Source: Escherichia coli
Lineage (GTDB): Bacteria; Pseudomonadota; Gammaproteobacteria; Enterobacterales; Enterobacteriaceae
DNA: 64,000 nt
Direction: 5' to 3' (one strand)
Assembly (NCBI RefSeq): GCF_003334335.1
Contig: NZ_QOWQ01000021.1
The translations under genes were made by a program, and so were the position numbers. Positions 642-64,000 of the stretch are shown in pieces. Under the pieces are notes generated by a model that ran no database searches, was not told the DNA's origin, and saw only the letters and a program-made list of their open reading frames with translations. Positions within the stretch are counted from its first letter, which is position 1; each line of letters begins with the position of its first letter.

Positions 642-1742
642 TCACTGTTTCTCGGTAATATCTTTGGCGTTGTACTGGAAATACCGCGTTAAAATGTCCA
701 GTTCGTTTTCGCTCATGCTGGTTCGTGCCCCCATTCCTTTGGCAATGGACGGCCACGCATTGACGGTGTAATGGTCGGCGGCAATAGGGGCATGACAACC
801 AGCGCAATAGGTATCGTCAAGTTTTTCAGCGTATTGCCATAGCGGTTTACGGTCCGCTAATGCGGGGACGGTAAGCGCACCCTGTAAAGACGCCTGACGC
901 CATTGATTGCCGTATTCGTCAGCCTGCCATTCCCCGTTTACCGTGAGCGCCTTGATACCTTCTTCACTTAATGTGGCTAGCGCCAGCCGTTGACCTGCCG
1001 CCAGGTAGAGCGTGTTTTCACTGCCCTGCATTTGATAACCCTGCAACAGAACGATCGGCTGTTTGCCACTGGCATCAACGACGGTGAGATCGGTACCAGG
1101 ATTCACGGTAGCCAGCTCGCCTATGCGAGAAGTTTTGAAAGGATAAATATGTGCGCCATTAGTCACTGAAGTAGCGGCCTGACTTTCCAGCTCATGCGCC
1201 GCGTTGTCATCCATTTTTATTTCTGGCGGAAAATGGGCAATGCCTTTATGACAATCGATACAGGTTTCGCCGCCCTTTTGTGCTTTGTTATGCATTTTCT
1301 GCGCAGATTCACTTTGCGAGGCAATATCCATGGCATCAAAAGAATGGCAACTACGGCACGTTGCAGAGTCAGTTGCTTTTAATTCTTTCCATACTGTTTC
1401 GGCCATTTCCTGGCGATGAGTTTCGAACTTATCGTCACTGTCTATTTTGCCGCTAACAAATTCATGATAAATATCTTTAGATGCTTTTAATTTAGCAAAT
1501 AAATAATCCATCCCTGACTTTGGAATATGGCAATCTGCACATTCCGCACGTATCCCTTTCTGGTTCGAAAAGTGGACAGTTCCCTGATATACCTCAAAAG
1601 GTTTACTCATCGAGTGGCAGGAAAGGCAAAATGCTGTATCCGACGTTTTATGTAAGGCTTTTTGCGCCAGCAATAACCCGCCGCCACCAACCACAACCGC
1701 TATCAGCAAAAACAATAACCCAATGCGTTTTTTCCCTCGCAT
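642..1742 (-). CDS. torY: NapC/NirT-family multihaem c-type cytochrome TorY
   Basis: 366 aa track ORF with N-terminal membrane anchor and several CxxCH haem motifs (CLSCH, CADCH, CRSCH, CIDCH, CAGCH). Confidence 0.92.
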
Positions 1743-2050
1743 AGATTCCTCTAAATAAATTCCAGAACACCGAAATCATTGTATAATTAAATACACAACG
1801 AATTAACCGCTTGCATAACTCGGCACAACACTGCCTGAAATAATCGATAAAGAATATGATTTATTACAATGTAATCATTAATTGCTAAGGAATAACCCAG
1901 TTGCTATTTAGAATATATATTTATCAGTTTTAGCAATTTAAATCCCATAATCAATGTGAATATAAAAAATATTATTAGCACAACGCTATGTTCACTGTCA
2001 CCCGCTCAACAGATCACGGTTATCGTTCGTTTTTTATACTGCTCAGGGAT

Positions 2051-2082
2051 AAAAAAAGGCCCCTGTTGAAATTGCAGGGGCC
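2051..2082 (-). terminator. putative rho-independent terminator after cutC
   Basis: Inverted repeat ggcccctg...caggggcc preceded on the + strand by an A-run (T-run on the - strand), about 50 nt past the cutC stop. Confidence 0.55.
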
Positions 2083-2129
2083 TGGTACGAGCAAGCATCA
2101 TATTGGGCGACATGATGCAACGGTAAAAA

Positions 2130-2885
<756 letters not shown>

Positions 2886-2889
2886 TTAA

Positions 2890-3456
2890 TTACGCTGACT
2901 GCTCGCTGGCAACGATCTCTTCAATGGACCACGGATGAAACTTAATAGTTGTTTTGCCATCGGTGACCGCCAGCGTCGGATTCGGTAATCGCTCATGCTC
3001 ACCTTTTGGTGAACTGGTTTTAACTGAGATCCCCGGTAGGCTGAGTCCTTCATCAGAAAGCAATGCCAGCGCACGGGCATTCAGCGTTTCTGGATCACCC
3101 GGCAGAACGATTTCAATATGTTCCCAACCTTCGTGTGGGTAACGTTTTTCCCCGGGCCACGGTAGCTCCACAATAGAAAACTGCCAGTGCGCAACCTGTA
3201 CCGGTTCATGCAATTTAAACAGACAAATCGGTCTGCCATTGATCATATTTTCTGACAAAAGCTCGCCACACTGTTCAAACCCGCGACGCCAGCGTTCAGC
3301 AGTGGCGTTTTGATGGCAACGCAAAGAAATGTGATCGGCAGTCAGCGGAGTGATATTCAACCCCAGACGGAGGGAAAGTTCATCTAATGCGTGGGTAAAT
3401 CGCGGTAAATCCGATGCAATATCCTGCAGCTCGTCGATAGATTGCCAGTTCGCCAT
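2890..3456 (-). CDS. yecM: YecM, VOC/glyoxalase-fold protein
   Basis: Track ORF 2890..3462; the known protein starts at the second Met (MANWQSIDELQ...), 188 aa; flanked by cutC and argS. Confidence 0.88.
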   Translation of the reverse strand: MANWQSIDELQDIASDLPRFTHALDELSLRLGLNITPLTADHISLRCHQNATAERWRRGFEQCGELLSENMINGRPICLFKLHEPVQVAHWQFSIVELPWPGEKRYPHEGWEHIEIVLPGDPETLNARALALLSDEGLSLPGISVKTSSPKGEHERLPNPTLAVTDGKTTIKFHPWSIEEIVASEQSA

Positions 3457-3671
3457 AATCACTCTTCGTCTTTCAGTAAAAGCGTTAATTTACCCTGTTG
3501 CCCTGCGCCAACCAACCGCTGATTTCACGCCGCTTCTGATGCAATAGTGAAAACGGCAATACGCCACGCGCACGTTGCTGACGAAAACAGCCATTTGCAG
3601 TATACTCCCGCCCTAATTTCTTTAACTGGTGCGGGCAATTTTTGCTCGCTTCATCAATGTAAGGTATTCCG

Positions 3672-5405
3672 GTGAATATTCAGGCTCTTCTCTCAGAAAA
3701 AGTCCGTCAGGCCATGATTGCGGCAGGCGCGCCTGCGGATTGCGAACCGCAGGTTCGTCAGTCAGCAAAAGTTCAGTTCGGCGACTATCAGGCTAACGGC
3801 ATGATGGCAGTTGCTAAAAAACTGGGTATGGCACCGCGACAATTAGCAGAGCAGGTGCTGACTCATCTGGATCTTAACGGTATCGCCAGCAAAGTTGAGA
3901 TCGCCGGTCCAGGCTTTATCAACATTTTCCTTGATCCGGCATTCCTGGCTGAACATGTTCAGCAGGCGCTGGCGTCCGATCGTCTCGGTGTTTCTACGCC
4001 AGAAAAACAGACCATTGTGGTTGACTACTCTGCGCCAAACGTGGCGAAAGAGATGCATGTCGGTCACCTGCGCTCTACCATTATTGGTGACGCAGCAGTG
4101 CGTACTCTGGAGTTCCTCGGTCACAAAGTGATTCGCGCAAACCACGTCGGCGACTGGGGCACTCAGTTCGGTATGCTGATTGCATGGCTGGAAAAGCAGC
4201 AGCAGGAAAACGCCGGTGAAATGGAGCTGGCTGACCTTGAAGGTTTCTACCGCGATGCGAAAAAGCATTACGACGAAGATGAAGAGTTTGCCGAGCGTGC
4301 ACGTAACTACGTGGTAAAACTGCAAAGCGGTGACGAATATTTCCGCGAGATGTGGCGCAAACTGGTCGACATCACCATGACGCAGAACCAGATCACCTAC
4401 GATCGTCTCAACGTGACGCTGACCCGTGATGACGTGATGGGCGAAAGCCTCTACAACCCAATGCTGCCAGGAATTGTGGCGGATCTCAAAGCCAAAGGTC
4501 TGGCAGTAGAAAGCGAAGGGGCGACCGTCGTATTCCTTGATGAGTTTAAAAACAAGGAAGGCGAACCGATGGGCGTGATCATTCAGAAGAAAGATGGCGG
4601 CTATCTCTACACCACCACTGATATCGCCTGTGCGAAATATCGTTATGAAACACTGCATGCCGATCGCGTGCTGTATTACATCGACTCCCGTCAGCATCAA
4701 CACCTGATGCAGGCATGGGCGATCGTCCGTAAAGCAGGCTATGTACCGGAATCCGTACCGCTGGAACACCACATGTTCGGCATGATGCTGGGTAAAGACG
4801 GCAAACCGTTCAAAACCCGCGCGGGTGGTACAGTGAAACTGGCCGATCTGCTGGATGAAGCCCTGGAACGTGCACGCCGTCTGGTGGCAGAAAAGAACCC
4901 GGATATGCCAGCTGACGAGCTGGAAAAACTGGCTAACGCGGTTGGTATTGGTGCGGTGAAATATGCGGATCTCTCCAAAAACCGCACCACGGACTACATC
5001 TTCGACTGGGACAACATGCTGGCGTTTGAGGGTAATACCGCGCCATACATGCAGTATGCTTACACGCGTGTATTGTCCGTGTTCCGTAAGGCAGAAATTA
5101 ACGAAGAGCAACTGGCTGCAGCTCCGGTAATCATCCGTGAAGATCGTGAAGCGCAACTGGCAGCTCGCCTGCTGCAGTTTGAAGAAACCCTCACCGTGGT
5201 TGCCCGTGAAGGCACGCCGCATGTGATGTGTGCTTACCTGTACGATCTGGCTGGTCTGTTCTCTGGCTTCTACGAGCACTGCCCGATCCTCAGCGCAGAA
5301 AACGAAGAAGTGCGTAACAGCCGTCTGAAACTGGCACAACTGACAGCGAAGACGCTAAAGCTGGGTCTGGATACGCTGGGTATTGAGACAGTAGAGCGTA
5401 TGTAA
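3672..5405 (+). CDS. argS: arginine--tRNA ligase
   Basis: 577 aa ORF with class I aminoacyl-tRNA synthetase HIGH-type motif (HVGHLRS) and ArgRS-like sequence throughout; GTG start. Confidence 0.97.
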
Positions 5406-56544: not shown

Positions 56545-58515
56545 ATGAGCAAAAAACACTTTGAACTGATTACTGCCACCAACCGCGCAGAATTCGCTGA
56601 AAAAGTTAACAAGCGATTACAGGAAGGCTGGGAACTTCTCGGTAATGCCGGTATTGCATCAGAGCCGGGAGTCCCCTGGTATCTCATGCAGGCTATGGTT
56701 TCAGGCAGTGATGACCAGGGAGGCACCATTATCACCCCGACATCCGACAGCGAACCGGAGTGGTATTACGTTGTGGTGAGCGCTGGTCAGTCCAACTCTA
56801 TGGCATACGGTGAGGGGTTACCTCTCCCGGACAGTTACGATAAACCCGATTCGCGCATTCGCCAGCTGGCACGCCGCAGCACCGTAACCCCGAGCGGAAA
56901 AGCCTGTGCCTATAACGACATCATTCTGGCGGATCACTGCCTGCATGACGTGCAGGATATGAGCCAGTACAACCACCCGAAAGCCGACCTGAACAAAGGT
57001 CAGTATGGCTGTGTGAGTCAGGGATTGCACATTGCGAAGCGCCTGCTGCCATTTATCCCGGCAAATGCGGGGATCCTTCTGGTCCCATGCAGCCGTGGCG
57101 GTTCCGGCTTTACAACCGGTGATGCGGGGCAATTCAGCGAGATCGGCGGCGCAACTGAAAAATCCTGCCGCTGGGGAACGAACACGCCGCTGTACAAGGA
57201 TTTAATCAGCCGCACAAAAGCAGCGCTGGCGAAAAATCCGAAAAACGTCCTGCTGGCCGTCTGCTGGACACAGGGCGAGGCAGATCTTGAGAAAGAACAA
57301 AACGCCGCACAGCATAAAGATCTTTTCACAGCCATGGTGAAGCAGTTCCGGGCTGACCTGGCCGATGTTGCGAAGCAGTGCAACCAGGGCAACCCTGAAA
57401 GCGTGCCGTGGATTTGTGGAGATACCACCTACCACTGGAAAAAAACCTACGAAGCACAGTACGCAACCGTGTATGGCGGATACAAAAACAGCACTGAGAA
57501 GAATATTGTTTTTGTGCCTTTTGTTACGGATGAGTACGGGAAAAACACCCCAACAAACGAGCCGACAGAAGATCCGGATATTGCGGAAGCGGGTTATTAC
57601 GGTGCCGCATCCCGCAGTAGCGGAAACTGGGTAAGCCATCTGCGTGGAACGCACTTCAGCTCATGGGCCCGCCGGGGCATTATTGCCGATCGCATGGCGT
57701 CAGCAATCCTGCTTAACGTCGGCCGCACGCTGCCATTTATTGCGGGTACAGAGCCGGAACGCGTGGCAAAACCATCACAGGATGCACCGGGCGGCATCAG
57801 TAAGCCATCTTCACCGGAAGCAGAACAACCGGCAGTCAGACCGGGGCCGGTCACGCTCATGAGTCTGCTGGCATCATCTCCTGAACTGGAAAGCCAGGGC
57901 TGGACGCTGAGCGAAGGCAAAAACGGGGCCAACACACCAAAACAACTGAAAGACACGCTGATCGGTGATGAGGAAGCAACAGGGAAAAAAGCCCTGAAAC
58001 TGACCAAACAGGAAGGCAATACCTGGTATCTGGAGCATAAGGCCGGTAATGGTGCTGACCTTCTGAAAAATGGCGGGACTGTAAGTTGCCGATTCAAAAT
58101 CGAGGGTGAGCTGAAAAAAGACCAGTACGCAATGGCGATGTACTGGAAAACATCAGCATTACCGCAGGATGTGAAATTACTGGGGGCAGATCCAAATAAT
58201 TTATTGCTCTCATTCTTTCTTCAGACAGACAGCGCAAACCTGAATCTGATGTATCACAAAACGCCAAACGAACAACTGGGAACCTTTGGTCAGTTCAATA
58301 ACAACTGGCACACCATAGCGTTTCGTTTTGCGGGAAACAACAGCACCCAGGTAACACCGGTTCTGGATGGCGTGGACGGAAAACCGTTCATGCTTTCCAC
58401 ATCAAAAGCCGATGTTACCAACGACACGTTACGCGTGACCGATATCACGTATCGGCCGACCTATACCGTACTGATTGACAGCCTGAGCGTTGTCGTAAAT
58501 CAGCCACCGGCATAA
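56545..58515 (+). CDS. NanS-p-like prophage sialate O-acetylesterase (DUF1737 + SGNH hydrolase + C-terminal domain)
   Basis: 656 aa; N-terminal MSKKHFELITATNRAEFAEKVNKRLQEGWELLG (DUF1737-like), SGNH block VVVSAGQSNSMAYGEG, overall size as in prophage NanS-p esterases. Confidence 0.75.
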   Translation: MSKKHFELITATNRAEFAEKVNKRLQEGWELLGNAGIASEPGVPWYLMQAMVSGSDDQGGTIITPTSDSEPEWYYVVVSAGQSNSMAYGEGLPLPDSYDKPDSRIRQLARRSTVTPSGKACAYNDIILADHCLHDVQDMSQYNHPKADLNKGQYGCVSQGLHIAKRLLPFIPANAGILLVPCSRGGSGFTTGDAGQFSEIGGATEKSCRWGTNTPLYKDLISRTKAALAKNPKNVLLAVCWTQGEADLEKEQNAAQHKDLFTAMVKQFRADLADVAKQCNQGNPESVPWICGDTTYHWKKTYEAQYATVYGGYKNSTEKNIVFVPFVTDEYGKNTPTNEPTEDPDIAEAGYYGAASRSSGNWVSHLRGTHFSSWARRGIIADRMASAILLNVGRTLPFIAGTEPERVAKPSQDAPGGISKPSSPEAEQPAVRPGPVTLMSLLASSPELESQGWTLSEGKNGANTPKQLKDTLIGDEEATGKKALKLTKQEGNTWYLEHKAGNGADLLKNGGTVSCRFKIEGELKKDQYAMAMYWKTSALPQDVKLLGADPNNLLLSFFLQTDSANLNLMYHKTPNEQLGTFGQFNNNWHTIAFRFAGNNSTQVTPVLDGVDGKPFMLSTSKADVTNDTLRVTDITYRPTYTVLIDSLSVVVNQPPA

Positions 58516-59387: not shown

Positions 59388-60019
59388 GAGCGGACCGCGA
59401 ACTGGATGTCATCTTTCAGGATATTCTTTCCGGCCTGTCGGCAGCCGGAATTCAGCGCACGGCAATGAGCGTGGGTAAGGTCGTCCGACAGCTACAGACA
59501 AAACGCATCAGAAGCCAGGTATCCCCGGAAGGCCAGCCATGGGAGAAACGAAAACGCCGCATCATGCGCATACAAAAAGGCGTGAAGTTTATCTGGAAGG
59601 ACGGCCAGGTAAGAAACCTGAAAAACTGGAGCACGTCACAGGGATGTTTCGGGCAGAAAATCACCGGCTACGATACGGACGCCGGGGGGATCAGGACGTT
59701 TTACAAGGCAGACATCGGGGACTACCTGGAAATTAACACACAGCGCGTCGCAGCAAGAGCATCACGTCGCTCACCTATGTTCGAAAAGCTGAGAACAGCA
59801 CGCTTTCTGAGAATCATCCCCGACACAAACGGCGTAAGTGTCGGCTTTCAGGGCCGGGCCGCGCGTATTGCCAGAGTGCATCAGTTCGGTGAGGTGGGCC
59901 TGGTATCACCCGGGAACGCCACGAAATACCCCGTGCGCGAGCTGCTGGGCCTGAACGAAAAAGACAAACAGCAAATCACAGAAACCGTGATTGCCGGACT
60001 GGGGAAAGCAGCGAAATGA
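59384..60019 (+). CDS. S: virion morphogenesis / tail completion protein (P2 gpS family)
   Basis: Internal ATG of track ORF 59357..60019 overlapping the R stop (ATGA). Confidence 0.7.
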   Translation: MRADRELDVIFQDILSGLSAAGIQRTAMSVGKVVRQLQTKRIRSQVSPEGQPWEKRKRRIMRIQKGVKFIWKDGQVRNLKNWSTSQGCFGQKITGYDTDAGGIRTFYKADIGDYLEINTQRVAARASRRSPMFEKLRTARFLRIIPDTNGVSVGFQGRAARIARVHQFGEVGLVSPGNATKYPVRELLGLNEKDKQQITETVIAGLGKAAK

Positions 60020-60597
60020 ACATCGAGCTTATGCGTCTGCTGGAAAACATTGTGCGGATTGGTGTGGTTACGGAAATCAACACCGACACCTGGAAGGTGC
60101 GTGTGCAGACCGGCGGCCTGACCACAAACTGGATCCAATGGAACAGCGGGCGGGCCGGAAAATTTAAAATCTGGATCCCCCCATCACCGGGCGAACAGGT
60201 GTTTCTCCTATGCCCGGGCGGCAATCCGGAAACCGCAGTCAGCGCAGGAAGTCTGTACAGCAACGACAACCCGCCACCGGGATCGCTGGAAAACGAAATG
60301 GTCATTACCGCGCCGGACGGTGCGGAATTTCGCTATAACGCACAGGAAAGCAGCCTGACGGCCAGAGGTATAAAAACCGCAACCATTACGGCTGAAACCA
60401 GTATCACGCTGGACGCGCCAAAGGTGGAATGTACGCAGTTGCTGAAGACAAAGACATTCGAGCTGACCAGCGGCGGAACAATGAAAGGCAACGTGAAACA
60501 CAGTGGCGGCAGCCTCGAATCAAACGGCATCACCGTACACACCCACGTACACAGCGGAGTGAAGAGCGGTAGCGATACGAGCGGAGGCCCACAATGA
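60016..60597 (+). CDS. V: baseplate spike/assembly protein (P2 gpV family)
   Basis: 193 aa; overlaps neighbours by 4 nt. Confidence 0.75.
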   Translation: MNIELMRLLENIVRIGVVTEINTDTWKVRVQTGGLTTNWIQWNSGRAGKFKIWIPPSPGEQVFLLCPGGNPETAVSAGSLYSNDNPPPGSLENEMVITAPDGAEFRYNAQESSLTARGIKTATITAETSITLDAPKVECTQLLKTKTFELTSGGTMKGNVKHSGGSLESNGITVHTHVHSGVKSGSDTSGGPQ

Positions 60598-60962
60598 GTA
60601 CCGGCTACACAGGCATGAATCACGCAGGCTACGGAACGCTGACAGACATCGACCATCTGAACCAGTCAATCACGGATATTATCCTGACACCGGAAGGTTC
60701 GCGTGTTATGCGGCGCGAGTATGGCAGCAACCTGCCCGTTCTTCTTGACAGTCCGGCAAATGAAATAACCAGACTGCGCTGTATGAGTGCTGCCGTGATC
60801 GCCATTACACGATGGGAGCCACGCGTTGCCATAAACAGCGTGGACCTGACGTGGAGAAACAATGGCAGCGCAGTGTTATCCATGAGCTATCTGATTGTAA
60901 GCACCATGCAGAGCGCCAGTATTTCCGTTGATATACAGGGAGGGAAGGATGCCGACAATTGA
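60594..60962 (+). CDS. W: baseplate wedge protein (P2 gpW / gp25-like)
   Basis: 122 aa; conserved position. Confidence 0.75.
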   Translation: MSTGYTGMNHAGYGTLTDIDHLNQSITDIILTPEGSRVMRREYGSNLPVLLDSPANEITRLRCMSAAVIAITRWEPRVAINSVDLTWRNNGSAVLSMSYLIVSTMQSASISVDIQGGKDADN

Positions 60963-61845
60963 TTTATCCCAGCTGCCGCAACCGGCGATCATTGAATCGC
61001 TGGATTATGAAGTGATTCTGGCACAGACAAAGACATTCATGATTAGCGTCTTTCCGGAAGCCATGCGCGATGAAGTGGCGGCAGCCCTTGAACTGGAGTC
61101 AGAACCACTGAACATCATCGCTCAGGCTATGGCATGGCGGGAGCTGTTACTGCGGCAGCGAATCAATGATGGCGCAGCGGCCTGTATGCTGAGTCATTCA
61201 TCAGGAAGCGATCTTGACAATCTGGGTGCAAACATGAATGTGCAGCGCCTGGTTATCACCGAAGCAACGGAGACCACACCGGCGGTAATGGAAAGTGACG
61301 CCGCGTTCCGGATGCGGATACAGAGCGCCTTTGAAGGGATGAGTGTTGCCGGGCCTTCCGGCTCATATGAGTATTTTGCACGCAGCGCAAGCGGAAAAGT
61401 GGCAGATGCCAGAGCAACCAGCCCGGCACCGGCGGAAGTTGTGGTTGCGCTCCTTTCAGCCGACGGAGACGGAACGGCGAACGAAGCACTGATTAACGAA
61501 GTGAAAGCCGTACTGAACGACGAAACAGTTCGCCCCGTGGCGGACAGACTGACGGTGAAAAGCGCGGAAATCATCAGCTACAAGATTGATGCGACACTCT
61601 ATTTTTACCCGGGGCCGGAATCAGAACCCATACTTCAGGCCGCACGAGCACAACTGGAGGCGTGGCTGGCAGAGCAGCGAAGAATTGGTCGTGACGTTGC
61701 CCGTTCAGCCATCATGGCGGCCCTGCATGTGCCCGGAGTTCAGCGGGTGGAGTTAACACAACCAGCGAAGGATCTGGTGATCAGCGAAACACAGGCGGCG
61801 CGATGCTCCGCCACAGAGATTCGCGCCGGGGGGACCGATGAGTAA
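60949..61845 (+). CDS. J: baseplate assembly protein J
   Basis: Internal ATG of track ORF 60928..61845; about 298 aa. Confidence 0.75.
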   Translation: MPTIDLSQLPQPAIIESLDYEVILAQTKTFMISVFPEAMRDEVAAALELESEPLNIIAQAMAWRELLLRQRINDGAAACMLSHSSGSDLDNLGANMNVQRLVITEATETTPAVMESDAAFRMRIQSAFEGMSVAGPSGSYEYFARSASGKVADARATSPAPAEVVVALLSADGDGTANEALINEVKAVLNDETVRPVADRLTVKSAEIISYKIDATLYFYPGPESEPILQAARAQLEAWLAEQRRIGRDVARSAIMAALHVPGVQRVELTQPAKDLVISETQAARCSATEIRAGGTDE

Positions 61846-62557
61846 AACGGTGCTTCCGCCGTCTGCCAGTGTTTTTCTGAAAACCGTTGATCGCTCCGGG
61901 GAAAAAATCAGCCAGCTGCCGGTGAAACTTAACACCCTGTGGAATGCGGACGAATGCCCTGAAGTACTGCTGCCATGGCTCGCATGGACGCTTTCAGTGG
62001 ACAGATGGGATAAGGCATGGACGGAAGAGACTCGCCGGGACGTTATACGCGAGTCGTGGATGGTTCACCGTCATAAGGGGACCATCAGCGCCATGAGAAG
62101 AGCTATTGCCCCGTTCGGCGCGCTGCTGAGCATTACAGAGTGGTGGGAAAACGGCGACCCTCCAGGCAGTTTTCGTCTCAACATCGATGTTACACATGCA
62201 GCCCTGACAGAGGCGACCTATCAGGAAATGGAGCGCATGATTGCGCTGGCGAAGCCGGTAAGCCGTCACCTGAAAGCACTGAGGCTGACATACATTGCAA
62301 AAGGGGAAGTCTTTACCGGGGCAGTGAGTCATAGCGGAGACATCATACAGGTATATCCGGACGCAACACTGCCGAACCCCTGCATTACCGGAGGAGAAAT
62401 TTATTGTGCTGGCGCGATTTACGACAGTGACATAACCCGGGTTAAACCGGATACGGAGATACCGTCACCGTGCGCCGCACAAGCCGCTATCTGTATAGCC
62501 GGAACAACATACGACGGCACAACGACCATCGTAAAACCGGCACCGGAGGAACCATGA
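61838..62557 (+). CDS. I: baseplate/tail formation protein I, with C-terminal extension
   Basis: 239 aa, overlaps J stop; longer than my recollection of P2 gpI. Confidence 0.65.
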
Positions 62558-64000
62558 CACAGAAATACAAAACCATTATCACCACTGAGGGCCGCCGGAA
62601 GCTGGCCGAAGCCCTGAAGCCCGGTGGAAAAAAAGTCACCCTGGCAAAGATGCAGGTGGGCGACGGCAACGGCCAGGAAGTGGAGCCATCAGAAGGGCAA
62701 AAACAACTGGTGAAAAAAGTCTGGGAAGGGAATATCTCCAGCATCACACAGGATGCGGAGAATGAAAGCTTTGTCACCGCAGAGCTGGTTATTCCTGCTG
62801 ACCAGGGCGGCTTCTGGGTGAGGGAGATTGGGTTATTCGATGATGAAGGTGCCCTGATTGCTGTTGGCAACGTAGCAGAAGGTTACAAACCGAAGCTGGA
62901 GGAAGGTTCAGGTCGGGAGCAGGTATTCAGGATGGTTATTCTCCTGAGTAATATTTCTGCGCTGAATATTAAACTGGATCAGTCAGTTGTCATGGTCACA
63001 AAAGCCGCTCTGGATCAGGCCATCAAAGAACATGAAAAAAGCGGCACCCACCAGTCTGCATCCACAAGCACAAAGGGATTTGTGCAACTGAGCAGTGCCA
63101 CCGACAGTGACAGCGAAGAAACAGCCGCAACCTCTAAGGCCATCAAAACGCTGAAAGGAATGATTAATGAAAAATCTTCAGTCACTGACGCCACGACCAG
63201 CCAGAAAGGCATCGTCCGGCTGAGCAGCGAAACGGGCAGCGCCGCCGAAAACGCCGCTGCAACACCAAAGGCAGTCCAGCTCACCATGCAGAAAGCCACT
63301 GAAGCCGAAAAACTGGCTGAACAGGCTAAACAGAGTGCACAGGCAGCAAGTGAGAAAGCCTCAACACTGGAGCAACAAATCAATGCCACAAACCAGACCG
63401 TACAACAACTTCAACAGTCAACACAAAGCGGAGCACAGAAGGCGAAATATACCGCGCTGACCGTTGATCTCAATACACTGGGAAAACCAGAACACCACGG
63501 GGATTACTATCAGTCGGCCAATAAAGATGCAACCACCGCCATGCACTACCCCGTTGAACAGGCGGGATACCTGTCCGTGAAAATGGGAGCCTGGGGTTTC
63601 TGTCAACAGGAATACACTACATGGAACCCCATCAGGAAGTTTGTCAGGGCTGTCAACGGTAATTTCACCGGAAATGGTCCATGGACGGACTGGAAGGAAC
63701 TGGGGGCCGAGGGGCCAGCGGGTCAACAAGGACCTGCCGGGCCGACGGGGCCGCAGGGGAACACCGGGCCACGAGGTTCGCAGGGAGAAACAGGAAGACA
63801 GGGCCCGGCAGGTCCACAGGGCCCGACAGGTGAAACCGGACCACAGGGACCACAAGGGCCAACCGGAAGGCTGGTACCCGGGGAAATTTACAGCATCGGA
63901 ACATACATTATTGCCGCACTAGCCCCGTATATAACCGACATCGGCAGAACCTATCAGCCAGGAGAAACTGTATCGGGTTCACGCCTTAAGCGATGCGCCC
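62554..64000 (+). CDS. H: tail fibre protein (P2 gpH-like), 5-prime part; open to window end
   Basis: ATG overlapping I stop; [40 protein letters not shown]... conserved tail-fibre N-terminus; frame stays open to the window end by manual translation, so absent from the ORF track. Confidence 0.75.
63714..63870 (+). repeat. collagen-like Gly-X-Y triplet repeat tract within the tail fibre gene
   Basis: Translation reads [52 protein letters not shown]; the DNA shows periodic ggnccn units. Confidence 0.7.

Follow-up and report, generated by a model that had tools for sequence, protein, structure and literature searches.

A collagen-like tract and a shared tip cassette in the tail fibre of a P2-like Escherichia coli prophage

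What does a run of Gly-X-Y triplets do in the tail fibre of an E. coli prophage, and does it vary between relatives? The question was raised by the end of a 64,000-nucleotide stretch of contig NZ_QOWQ01000021.1 (assembly GCF_003334335.1), called here the window, where a P2 gpH-type tail-fibre gene encodes 19 unbroken Gly-X-Y triplets at nt 63703–63873 on the + strand (aa 384–440, 57 aa). Our analyses make it very probable that this is a genuine collagen-like (Gly-X-Y)19 rod in the distal part of the fibre, acting both as a structural spacer and as a zone of crossover and slippage. According to the mechanism that we propose, the three fibre chains would be kept in register by a trimeric knob on the N-terminal side and by a 92-aa tip on the C-terminal side, and the tract would wind into a triple helix of ~16 nm that holds the tip off the knob. 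Gain or loss of triplets within the tract would yield the 18–22 triplets found among relatives. A cassette running from the distal collagen through the tip into the 5' half of the chaperone gene would have been exchanged among three backgrounds, i.e. P2-like ones with contractile tails, lambdoid ones with long non-contractile tails and Shiga toxin (Stx)-phage-like ones with short tails.

The collagen-like tract and its place in the fibre

The initial annotation had placed about 17 Pro- and Gln-rich triplets at 63714–63870 in a tail-fibre gene. This is the same tract, although it starts 11 nt earlier and ends 3 nt later, with two more triplets. Its described composition holds: Pro occupies 11 of the 19 X positions (58%) and Glu two, and the Y positions are mostly taken by Gln (7), Thr (6) and Ala (3), with a single Arg. 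The Pfam family Collagen (PF01391) matches aa 384–439 of the fibre protein (E 2.6e-8), and the top PDB sequence matches of the tract are BclA (1WCK, E 2e-8) and animal collagens. A search of NCBIfam yielded sub-threshold matches to collagen-like adhesins (Lcl, SclA/B), which reflect Gly-X-Y composition and not membership of these families. If triple-helical, the tract would be ~16 nm long, and 18–22 triplets would correspond to ~15.4–18.9 nm (0.286 nm per residue).

A chance origin of the tract is excluded. The frequency of Gly in the rest of the fibre protein is 0.082, which gives an expectation of fewer than 1e-13 such runs in 64 kb read in six frames. When the fibre protein was shuffled 20,000 times, Gly-X-Y runs reached six triplets at most, and none of the six frames of the whole window contains another run of five or more. 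The tract is not a simple tandem repeat of DNA either: Tandem Repeats Finder detected a 9/18-bp periodicity with weak scores, and the tract is rather a diverged repeat at the codon level, except for a 9-bp Gly-Pro-Thr array in some relatives. The GC content of its DNA is 0.71, against 0.51 in the remainder of the gene. Two antisense open reading frames (ORFs) overlap the tract, at 63418–63855 (145 aa) and 63665–63904 (79 aa), both on the - strand. They are not evidence for genes, since the GGN-CCN codon periodicity yields open frames on the other strand.

The reading frame of the fibre gene opens with the ATG at 62554 and has no stop before the window ends; 482 of its ~532 codons are inside the window. 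The last ~50 codons, the stop and the chaperone gene lie beyond the window end and were read from relatives; those with a full-length protein of 532 aa are 99.4% identical in DNA. The parts of the gene are listed below.

62554..64000, + strand: tail-fibre gene, P2 gpH-type (translation, relatives, PHROG)
62554..63003, + strand: N-terminal baseplate-attachment domain, Phage_tail_fib PF12571, aa 1–150 (Pfam, E 1.9e-51)
63061..63309, + strand: two Phage_fiber_2 (Pf2, PF03406) repeats, aa 170–200 and 214–252 (Pfam, E 5.8e-13 and 2.1e-9)
63310..63441, + strand: Ala/Gln/Ser-rich low-complexity segment, aa ~253–296 (sequence, likeness to the PCoil description in PMC3368898)
63442..63702, + strand: pyocin-type fibre knob, aa ~297–383, abutting the collagen-like tract (profile, structure model, Foldseek)
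63703..63873, + strand: collagen-like tract of 19 triplets (translation, PF01391 match, composition)
63874..64000, + strand: C-terminal tip, first 42 of 92 residues, cut by the window end (full domain in relatives)

The tail-fibre assignment of the initial annotation is borne out by the PF12571 and Pf2 matches, by matches to PHROG tail and tail-fibre families (E down to 5e-124) and by the position of the gene after the baseplate genes V-W-J-I. The Ala/Gln/Ser-rich segment is a probable alpha-helical coiled coil like the 'PCoil' of known collagen-like prophage fibres. The knob resembles those of R-type pyocins in both sequence and fold. A profile built from nine knob homologues matched the R2 and R1 pyocin fibres (6CL6, 6CT8, 6CL5; E 3e-13), and the AlphaFold2 model of the knob (predicted local distance difference test score, pLDDT, 84) was superposed by Foldseek on 6cl6_A with a TMq of 0.71. 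By tblastn, the knob was found at 31–49% identity in the fibres of 109 phage records from many genera; a word-indexed search with the knob gave no matches.

The 92-aa tip is presumed to be the receptor-binding and trimerizing head. Its model is all-beta (pLDDT 71). A direct PDB sequence search with the tip returned nothing meaningful, and word-indexed searches returned partial E. coli proteins only. In a HMMER scan of 1.84 billion representative sequences, all whole-domain relatives of the tip were at least 87% identical to it and came from E. coli; weak multi-stretch matches to giant proteins with Ig-like repeats were regarded as artefacts of composition or repeats. Distant homologues of the tip nevertheless end the fibres of two IMG/VR loci, L018 and L029 (26% identity, pairwise E 2e-7), and share with it the motifs GSFILAA, PGxTxPGSKLR, PGTWRAC and GIGIFERIA. 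A tip with a Peptidase_S74 intramolecular chaperone was also considered and rejected, as Pfam found no match to that family in the fibre protein.

The collagen-free gpH-type fibre of L018 (nt 2962–4338 of that locus) is 41% identical to ours over its whole length and has the same knob. Its order is knob, Pf2, coiled coil and distant tip, i.e. a Pf2 repeat and a short coiled coil link knob and tip where the window protein has collagen. Thus, the tract takes the place of another trimeric spacer. The fibre of L029 (nt 1562–3625) combines a PfN-type N-terminus with two collagen tracts, followed by Pf2, knob, Pf2, coiled coil and distant tip.

Length variation, breakpoints and the shared cassette

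The initial annotation had proposed that repeat numbers be compared across related prophages. We did so with 17 relatives, i.e. 14 genomes with the full gene among 5,426 complete E. coli genomes and three IMG/VR contigs. The tract varies between 18, 19, 20 and 22 triplets behind a near-invariant first 1.1 kb of the gene, and the count is therefore not the same everywhere. There are 18 triplets in seven genomes, 19 in four genomes as well as in the window and L017, 20 in H6, H7, L015 and L016, and 22 in H5 (H numbers denote BLAST hits, and L numbers loci). The 5' third of the tract is confined to the 14 E. coli genomes with the full gene. Alignment of the DNA of 11 P2-like relatives mapped the differences to three sites.

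63739..63747, + strand: indel hotspot 1, the Gly-Pro-Thr unit GGNCCGACG, one copy here and three or four tandem copies in relatives
63797..63814, + strand: indel hotspot 2, two triplets (18 bp) that the window has and that are missing from L003, L010 and L017
63838..63846, + strand: indel hotspot 3, a Gly-Pro-Gln unit (9 bp) that the window has and that is missing from L003, L008, L009, L010, L015 and L016

Hotspot 2 is bounded by the 10-bp direct repeat ACAGGGCCCG. All indels in the tract are of 9, 18 or 27 bp, multiples of 9 bp that keep the Gly register along with the reading frame. None of the 29 fibres examined has a Gly interruption in its last collagen tract, which comprises 30–50 triplets in the lambdoid and Stx-phage-like fibres. 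Synonymous changes at Gly and Pro codons leave the protein pattern intact. At the sequence level, the unbroken register and the 9-bp indels can be taken as evidence for selection for an uninterrupted helix. Two regions of the genome of E. coli JNEC-KY204 (NZ_AP045180.1), at 2041865–2041976 and 4708503–4709958, match the 5' part of the tract that is specific to the P2 lineage. This strain probably carries two related prophages with the fibre, which would provide a template for gene conversion within the cell.

Variation in the gene begins at the tract. In the alignment of the same 11 P2-like relatives, four sites vary within the first 1100 nt of the fibre gene, and from the tract onward there are dense substitutions in addition to the three indel sites. 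Two tract alleles and two tip alleles occur in all four combinations (the window, L001, L002 and L003). The distal part of the tract is also found in other types of prophages.

63766..63873, + strand: 3' two-thirds of the tract, common to lambdoid side-tail-fibre genes of the EPclC type described below (~97% nt identity)

Lambdoid and Stx-phage-like fibres have unrelated N-termini; from the distal tract onward, through the tip and along the 5' half of the chaperone gene, their identity is ~97–100%. Three homology breakpoints lie inside the tract, at 63766 (triplet 8), 63833 (triplet 15) and 63841 (triplet 16). They were determined by ungapped extension from the tract end, and BLAST hits H15–H28 begin at query positions 1203–1276. 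Upstream of 63766, similarity to the lambdoid fibres collapses. Among these, L005, L006, L012 and L013 have the fibre gene behind J and Lom. The last 105 nt of the tract are matched by L005, L006 and L012 and also by L011, which belongs to the group of PhiR5_2 and L014, with three mismatches in L005, L006 and L011, and the 129 nt of tip DNA in the window differ by 0–1 mismatches from L002, L005, L006, L012 and L013. The break at 63841 is that of L013. The break at 63833 is found in L014, in IMG/VR loci such as L024 and in PhiR5_2, a phage of 61.5 kb whose structural genes are ~86% identical to those of short-tailed Stx-converting phages, e.g. Min27 and Stx2a phages. A search of the available literature for PhiR5/PhiR12, phages which have this tip too, gave nothing.

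Residues 1–86 of the chaperone are nearly identical in the P2-like, lambdoid and Stx-phage-like backgrounds, whereas its DUF4376 half diverges; judging from these alignments, the right-hand boundary of the cassette seems to fall about half-way along the chaperone gene. The left junction, at each of the three breakpoints mapped, is within collagen-coding DNA. Together, the breakpoints and the chaperone pattern indicate that the mobile unit extends from the distal collagen across the tip and through the tip-proximal half of the chaperone gene. The description of the tract as recombination-prone in the initial annotation is thus supported, by the three start points of homology within the tract as well as by the reassorted tract and tip alleles. 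As the run of similar GGN-CCN-NNN codons is common to the collagens of other prophage fibres, the tract qualifies as both a crossover and a slippage zone.

Comparison with known fibres and alternative explanations

Collagen-like proteins of enterohaemorrhagic E. coli (EHEC) prophages, EPclA to EPclD, were defined by Ghosh et al. 2012 (PMC3368898). The lengths of their collagen (Col) domains vary by multiples of three residues in a range of 27–322 aa; Pro is dominant at X (48%) and Gln/Thr are favoured at Y, with 36% Asp/Glu at X and 31% Arg/Lys at Y (PMC3368898). EPclA is a dumbbell-shaped trimer with a collagen signal in circular dichroism and a melting temperature of 42 °C, and its C-terminal domain trimerizes and nucleates refolding (PMC3368898). 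By analogy with these experiments, our tract would form a triple helix and hold a trimer. An essential EPclB-type protein (ECs1228, which is ORF67 of Sp5) is located at the ends of Sp5 tails (PMC5155283), and the lateral fibres of phi24B are trimers of gp61 whose collagen-like shaft is flexible (bioRxiv 10.64898/2026.04.10.717836).

The window protein shares several features of this family. It occupies the tail-fibre position in an E. coli prophage with close relatives in 14 E. coli chromosomes, and it has the Pf2 repeats of EPclB and EPclC, although both PF03406 copies precede the collagen and are not located between two collagen domains. With a P2 gpH-type anchor in place of PfN (PF08400, lambda Stf-type), it lacks one defining EPcl feature: Pfam gives PF12571 and no PF08400. 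Neither did Pfam find in the window protein PfC (PF06820), the C-terminus of types A and B. EPclA and EPclB (ECs2717; ECs1228; phi24B gp61) are likewise prophage fibres with Gly-X-Y rods between globular ends, but they begin with PfN, end with PfC and have collagen richer in charged residues.

A close counterpart is EPclC. Its published row, ECED1_2081, gives 520 aa and Col domains of 118+117, and the ORF-401 fibre of P-EibA is also of this type (PMC3368898). The tip is ~90–100% identical to those of 520-aa lambdoid fibres whose size and Col lengths match this row. As L006 (520 aa, Col 118+117) fits it, the distal collagen and tip of the window would be of the EPclC type, an assignment of L006 that we infer from the published table of lengths. 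In DNA, identity to L006-like lambdoid fibres is ~97–100% from the distal 12 triplets through the 92-aa tip and into the chaperone gene, over its 5' half, and the style of Pro at X and Gln/Thr at Y is the same. EPclC differs in that it has PfN, sits behind J-Lom and contains two long collagens (~39+39 triplets), whereas the window protein has a P2 gpH-type start, a pyocin-type knob and 19 triplets only. The window fibre is a new domain combination within the known collagen-like fibre proteins of E. coli prophages.

The part of the protein before the collagen is related to P2 gpH and to the R-type pyocin fibre (PA0620; 6CL6, 6CT8) through PF12571, the gene position after gpI and the knob. At its end, the pyocin fibre has another knob and a 'foot'. 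In contrast, the knob of the window protein precedes collagen and an unrelated small tip, and the chaperone is of the DUF4376 type. P2 gpH is not known to have a collagen tract. Beyond E. coli, Gly-X-Y repeats stand between the domains that set host range in antireceptors of Streptococcus thermophilus and lactococcal phages, and collagen repeats have been proposed as recombination hotspots there (Duplessis & Moineau 2001, cited in PMC5601072 and PMC7242381). Proteins and hosts are unrelated in that case, and the analogy is one of mechanism only. BclA of the Bacillus anthracis exosporium resembles the fibre as a bacterial collagen-like rod with a C-terminal trimeric globular head, but it is not a phage protein, its match is confined to the Gly-X-Y region and its head is unrelated. 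The number of repeats in BclA is polymorphic.

Several points weigh against a genuine collagen rod with the roles that we propose. The helicity of a 57-residue tract at 37 °C is argued by analogy, and with 57 aa the tract is among the shorter ones within the EPcl range (27–322 aa). The tract is poor in charges, with Glu at 2/19 X positions against 36% Asp/Glu and Arg at 1/19 Y positions against 31% Arg/Lys in EPcl collagens, so that its stability could be below theirs. EPclA and EPclB, on which experiments were performed, end instead in PfC (PF06820). Relatives supplied the last ~50 codons of the fibre gene as well as the gene for the chaperone. The tip model is of moderate confidence and without match among solved structures, and the roles of the tip are assumed; it would bind the receptor, and tract length or tip allele may affect host range. 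Lastly, slippage and homologous recombination are indistinguishable as sources of the 9-bp unit changes.

The main rival to a collagen rod is a Pro/Gly-rich linker, flexible and without a stable triple helix, that only ties tip and knob together, trimerization being left to the flanking domains. The shortness of the tract (19 triplets) and its having fewer charged residues than the EPcl collagens shown to be stable would fit such a linker, as would the absence of prolyl hydroxylation in E. coli (PMC3368898) and the collagen-like shaft of phi24B, which was not resolved by cryo-electron microscopy and is called flexible (bioRxiv 10.64898/2026.04.10.717836). However, a mere linker would not account well for a Gly register that is perfect in every relative, for indels in multiples of 9 bp and not merely of 3, or for Pro at 58% of X positions, above the 48% of EPcl collagens. 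The tract is also flanked by two domains expected to be trimeric, an arrangement that would favour nucleation, and L018 has a structured spacer, a Pf2 repeat and a coiled coil, at the equivalent position. Register, 9-bp indels and this positional equivalence with a coiled-coil spacer make us disfavour the linker, which we deem unlikely. A still weaker candidate, in our view almost certainly wrong, is that the Gly-X-Y pattern simply reflects repetitive, GC-rich DNA or coding in another frame or on the other strand, with no selection on the protein feature. The long antisense ORFs over the tract (63418–63855 and 63665–63904) and its GC content of 0.71 might suggest it, but such ORFs are expected from GGN-CCN codons. 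Moreover, the sense frame runs on without a break from the 383 aa of the fibre N-terminus through the tract to a conserved tip, synonymous variation of Gly and Pro codons preserves the protein pattern, and Pfam Collagen matches the sense-frame protein, the family search having covered the sense frame only.

A different question is what drives the changes in length. They could be due solely to replication slippage at 9-bp units, as in a contingency locus, and be neutral and unconnected to tip exchange. The pure tandem (GGNCCGACG)n array of hotspot 1, with n = 1, 3 or 4, and the 18-bp indel between 10-bp direct repeats are what slippage would produce. Yet homology to non-P2 fibres begins abruptly at three positions of the tract and runs through the tip into the chaperone gene, the density of substitutions jumps at the tract, and tract and tip alleles are found in all four combinations. 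Slippage as the sole process is therefore very unlikely in our judgement, and slippage and recombination probably coexist. Tip switching by Gin/Cin-type DNA inversion was rejected, as the relatives have neither an invertase gene nor an inverted fibre segment downstream of the fibre. The preferred reading thus remains a collagen-like rod that is also a crossover and slippage zone. A broader proposal is that collagen-coding tracts are a shared 'splice zone', preserving both frame and register, that moves recognition cassettes across all three tail types; crossovers could occur at many of the triplets, since one Gly-X-Y register can be fused to another without disruption. We consider the case for it evenly balanced.

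Neighbouring genes and meaning for E. coli prophages

The fibre gene directly follows a set of baseplate genes.

60016..62557, + strand: baseplate genes V (60016–60597), W/gp25 (60594–60962), J (60949–61845) and I (61838–62557) (ORFs; RefSeq annotation of L001)

These genes overlap one another, and the fibre gene overlaps I. Their names come from the RefSeq annotation of L001, an E. coli locus with 99.4% identity. The PF12571 N-terminus and the gene order V-W-J-I-H identify the fibre as P2 gpH-type, and a chaperone gene follows in the relatives, as expected for this type, beyond the window end. The prophage is distantly related to P2-like phages of the P88/Xuanwuvirus type, with ~72–74% identity in the terminase and portal genes. 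In P2, the genes from sheath to gpU come after H-G, on the same strand. At L001 8254–13446, the genes for tail sheath, tube, assembly, tape-measure and gpU-like proteins are located downstream of the fibre on the opposite strand.

The initial annotation had also suggested looking past the window for a receptor-binding domain and an assembly gene. Both the 92-aa tip and a DUF4376 chaperone gene are present in the relatives. In all of them, a gene of 200 aa begins 17 nt past the fibre stop (7616–8218 in L001, next after the fibre). DUF4376, at aa 73–182, is the sole Pfam match of its product, with no Caudo_TAP match reported. For Alteromonas phages V22 and A5, the listed tail-fibre chaperones are DUF4376 proteins (PMC10579305), and the function of the H-fibre of Campylobacter CJIE1 requires a co-expressed downstream DUF4376 gene; the C-terminus of Mu Tfa is described as a homologue of the domain (PMC7882524). 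By analogy, the DUF4376 neighbour is probably a chaperone that helps the tip to fold.

In lambdoid and Stx-phage-like loci with the tip, a gene for a protein with a YadA C-terminal domain is usually found shortly past the chaperone gene; P2-like loci lack it.

L005 5676–6749, L006 5803–6885, L011 4303–5244, L013 4143–5200 and L014 4229–5171: YadA-type gene, annotated 'putative adhesin/invasin' in L005

We take these proteins to resemble the Eib immunoglobulin-binding proteins of P-Eib prophages. Shortly upstream of the tail genes of the P2-like prophage, nt 56545–58515 of the window (+ strand) encode a 656-aa protein with DUF1737 (3–52), SASA sialate O-acetylesterase (148–274) and DUF6645 (507–620) domains, which we take to be the NanS-p-like layout known from Stx prophages. 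The capsid of phi24B is decorated by a processed esterase, according to a preprint on that phage.

The locus does not represent a new kind of system, as collagen-like fibres of E. coli prophages were described and biophysically characterized in 2012. It is rather a clean, small example, with a near-invariant anchor and all variation beginning at the collagen tract. Tail-fibre tips decide which bacteria a phage or prophage reaches, and such prophages move virulence genes among E. coli. Here, one tip-plus-chaperone cassette is found on three tail architectures with junctions in collagen-coding DNA, which supports an earlier proposal that recombination in phage antireceptors is concentrated at collagen repeats. 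This suggests a rule for engineering fibres or pyocin-like particles, namely to join within Gly-X-Y and to keep the N-terminal half of the cognate chaperone. If collagen-coding tracts do act as a splice zone, selection on the tract would favour evolvability no less than structure, and cross-morphotype tip exchange in E. coli prophages would be predictable and could be engineered by joining within collagen.

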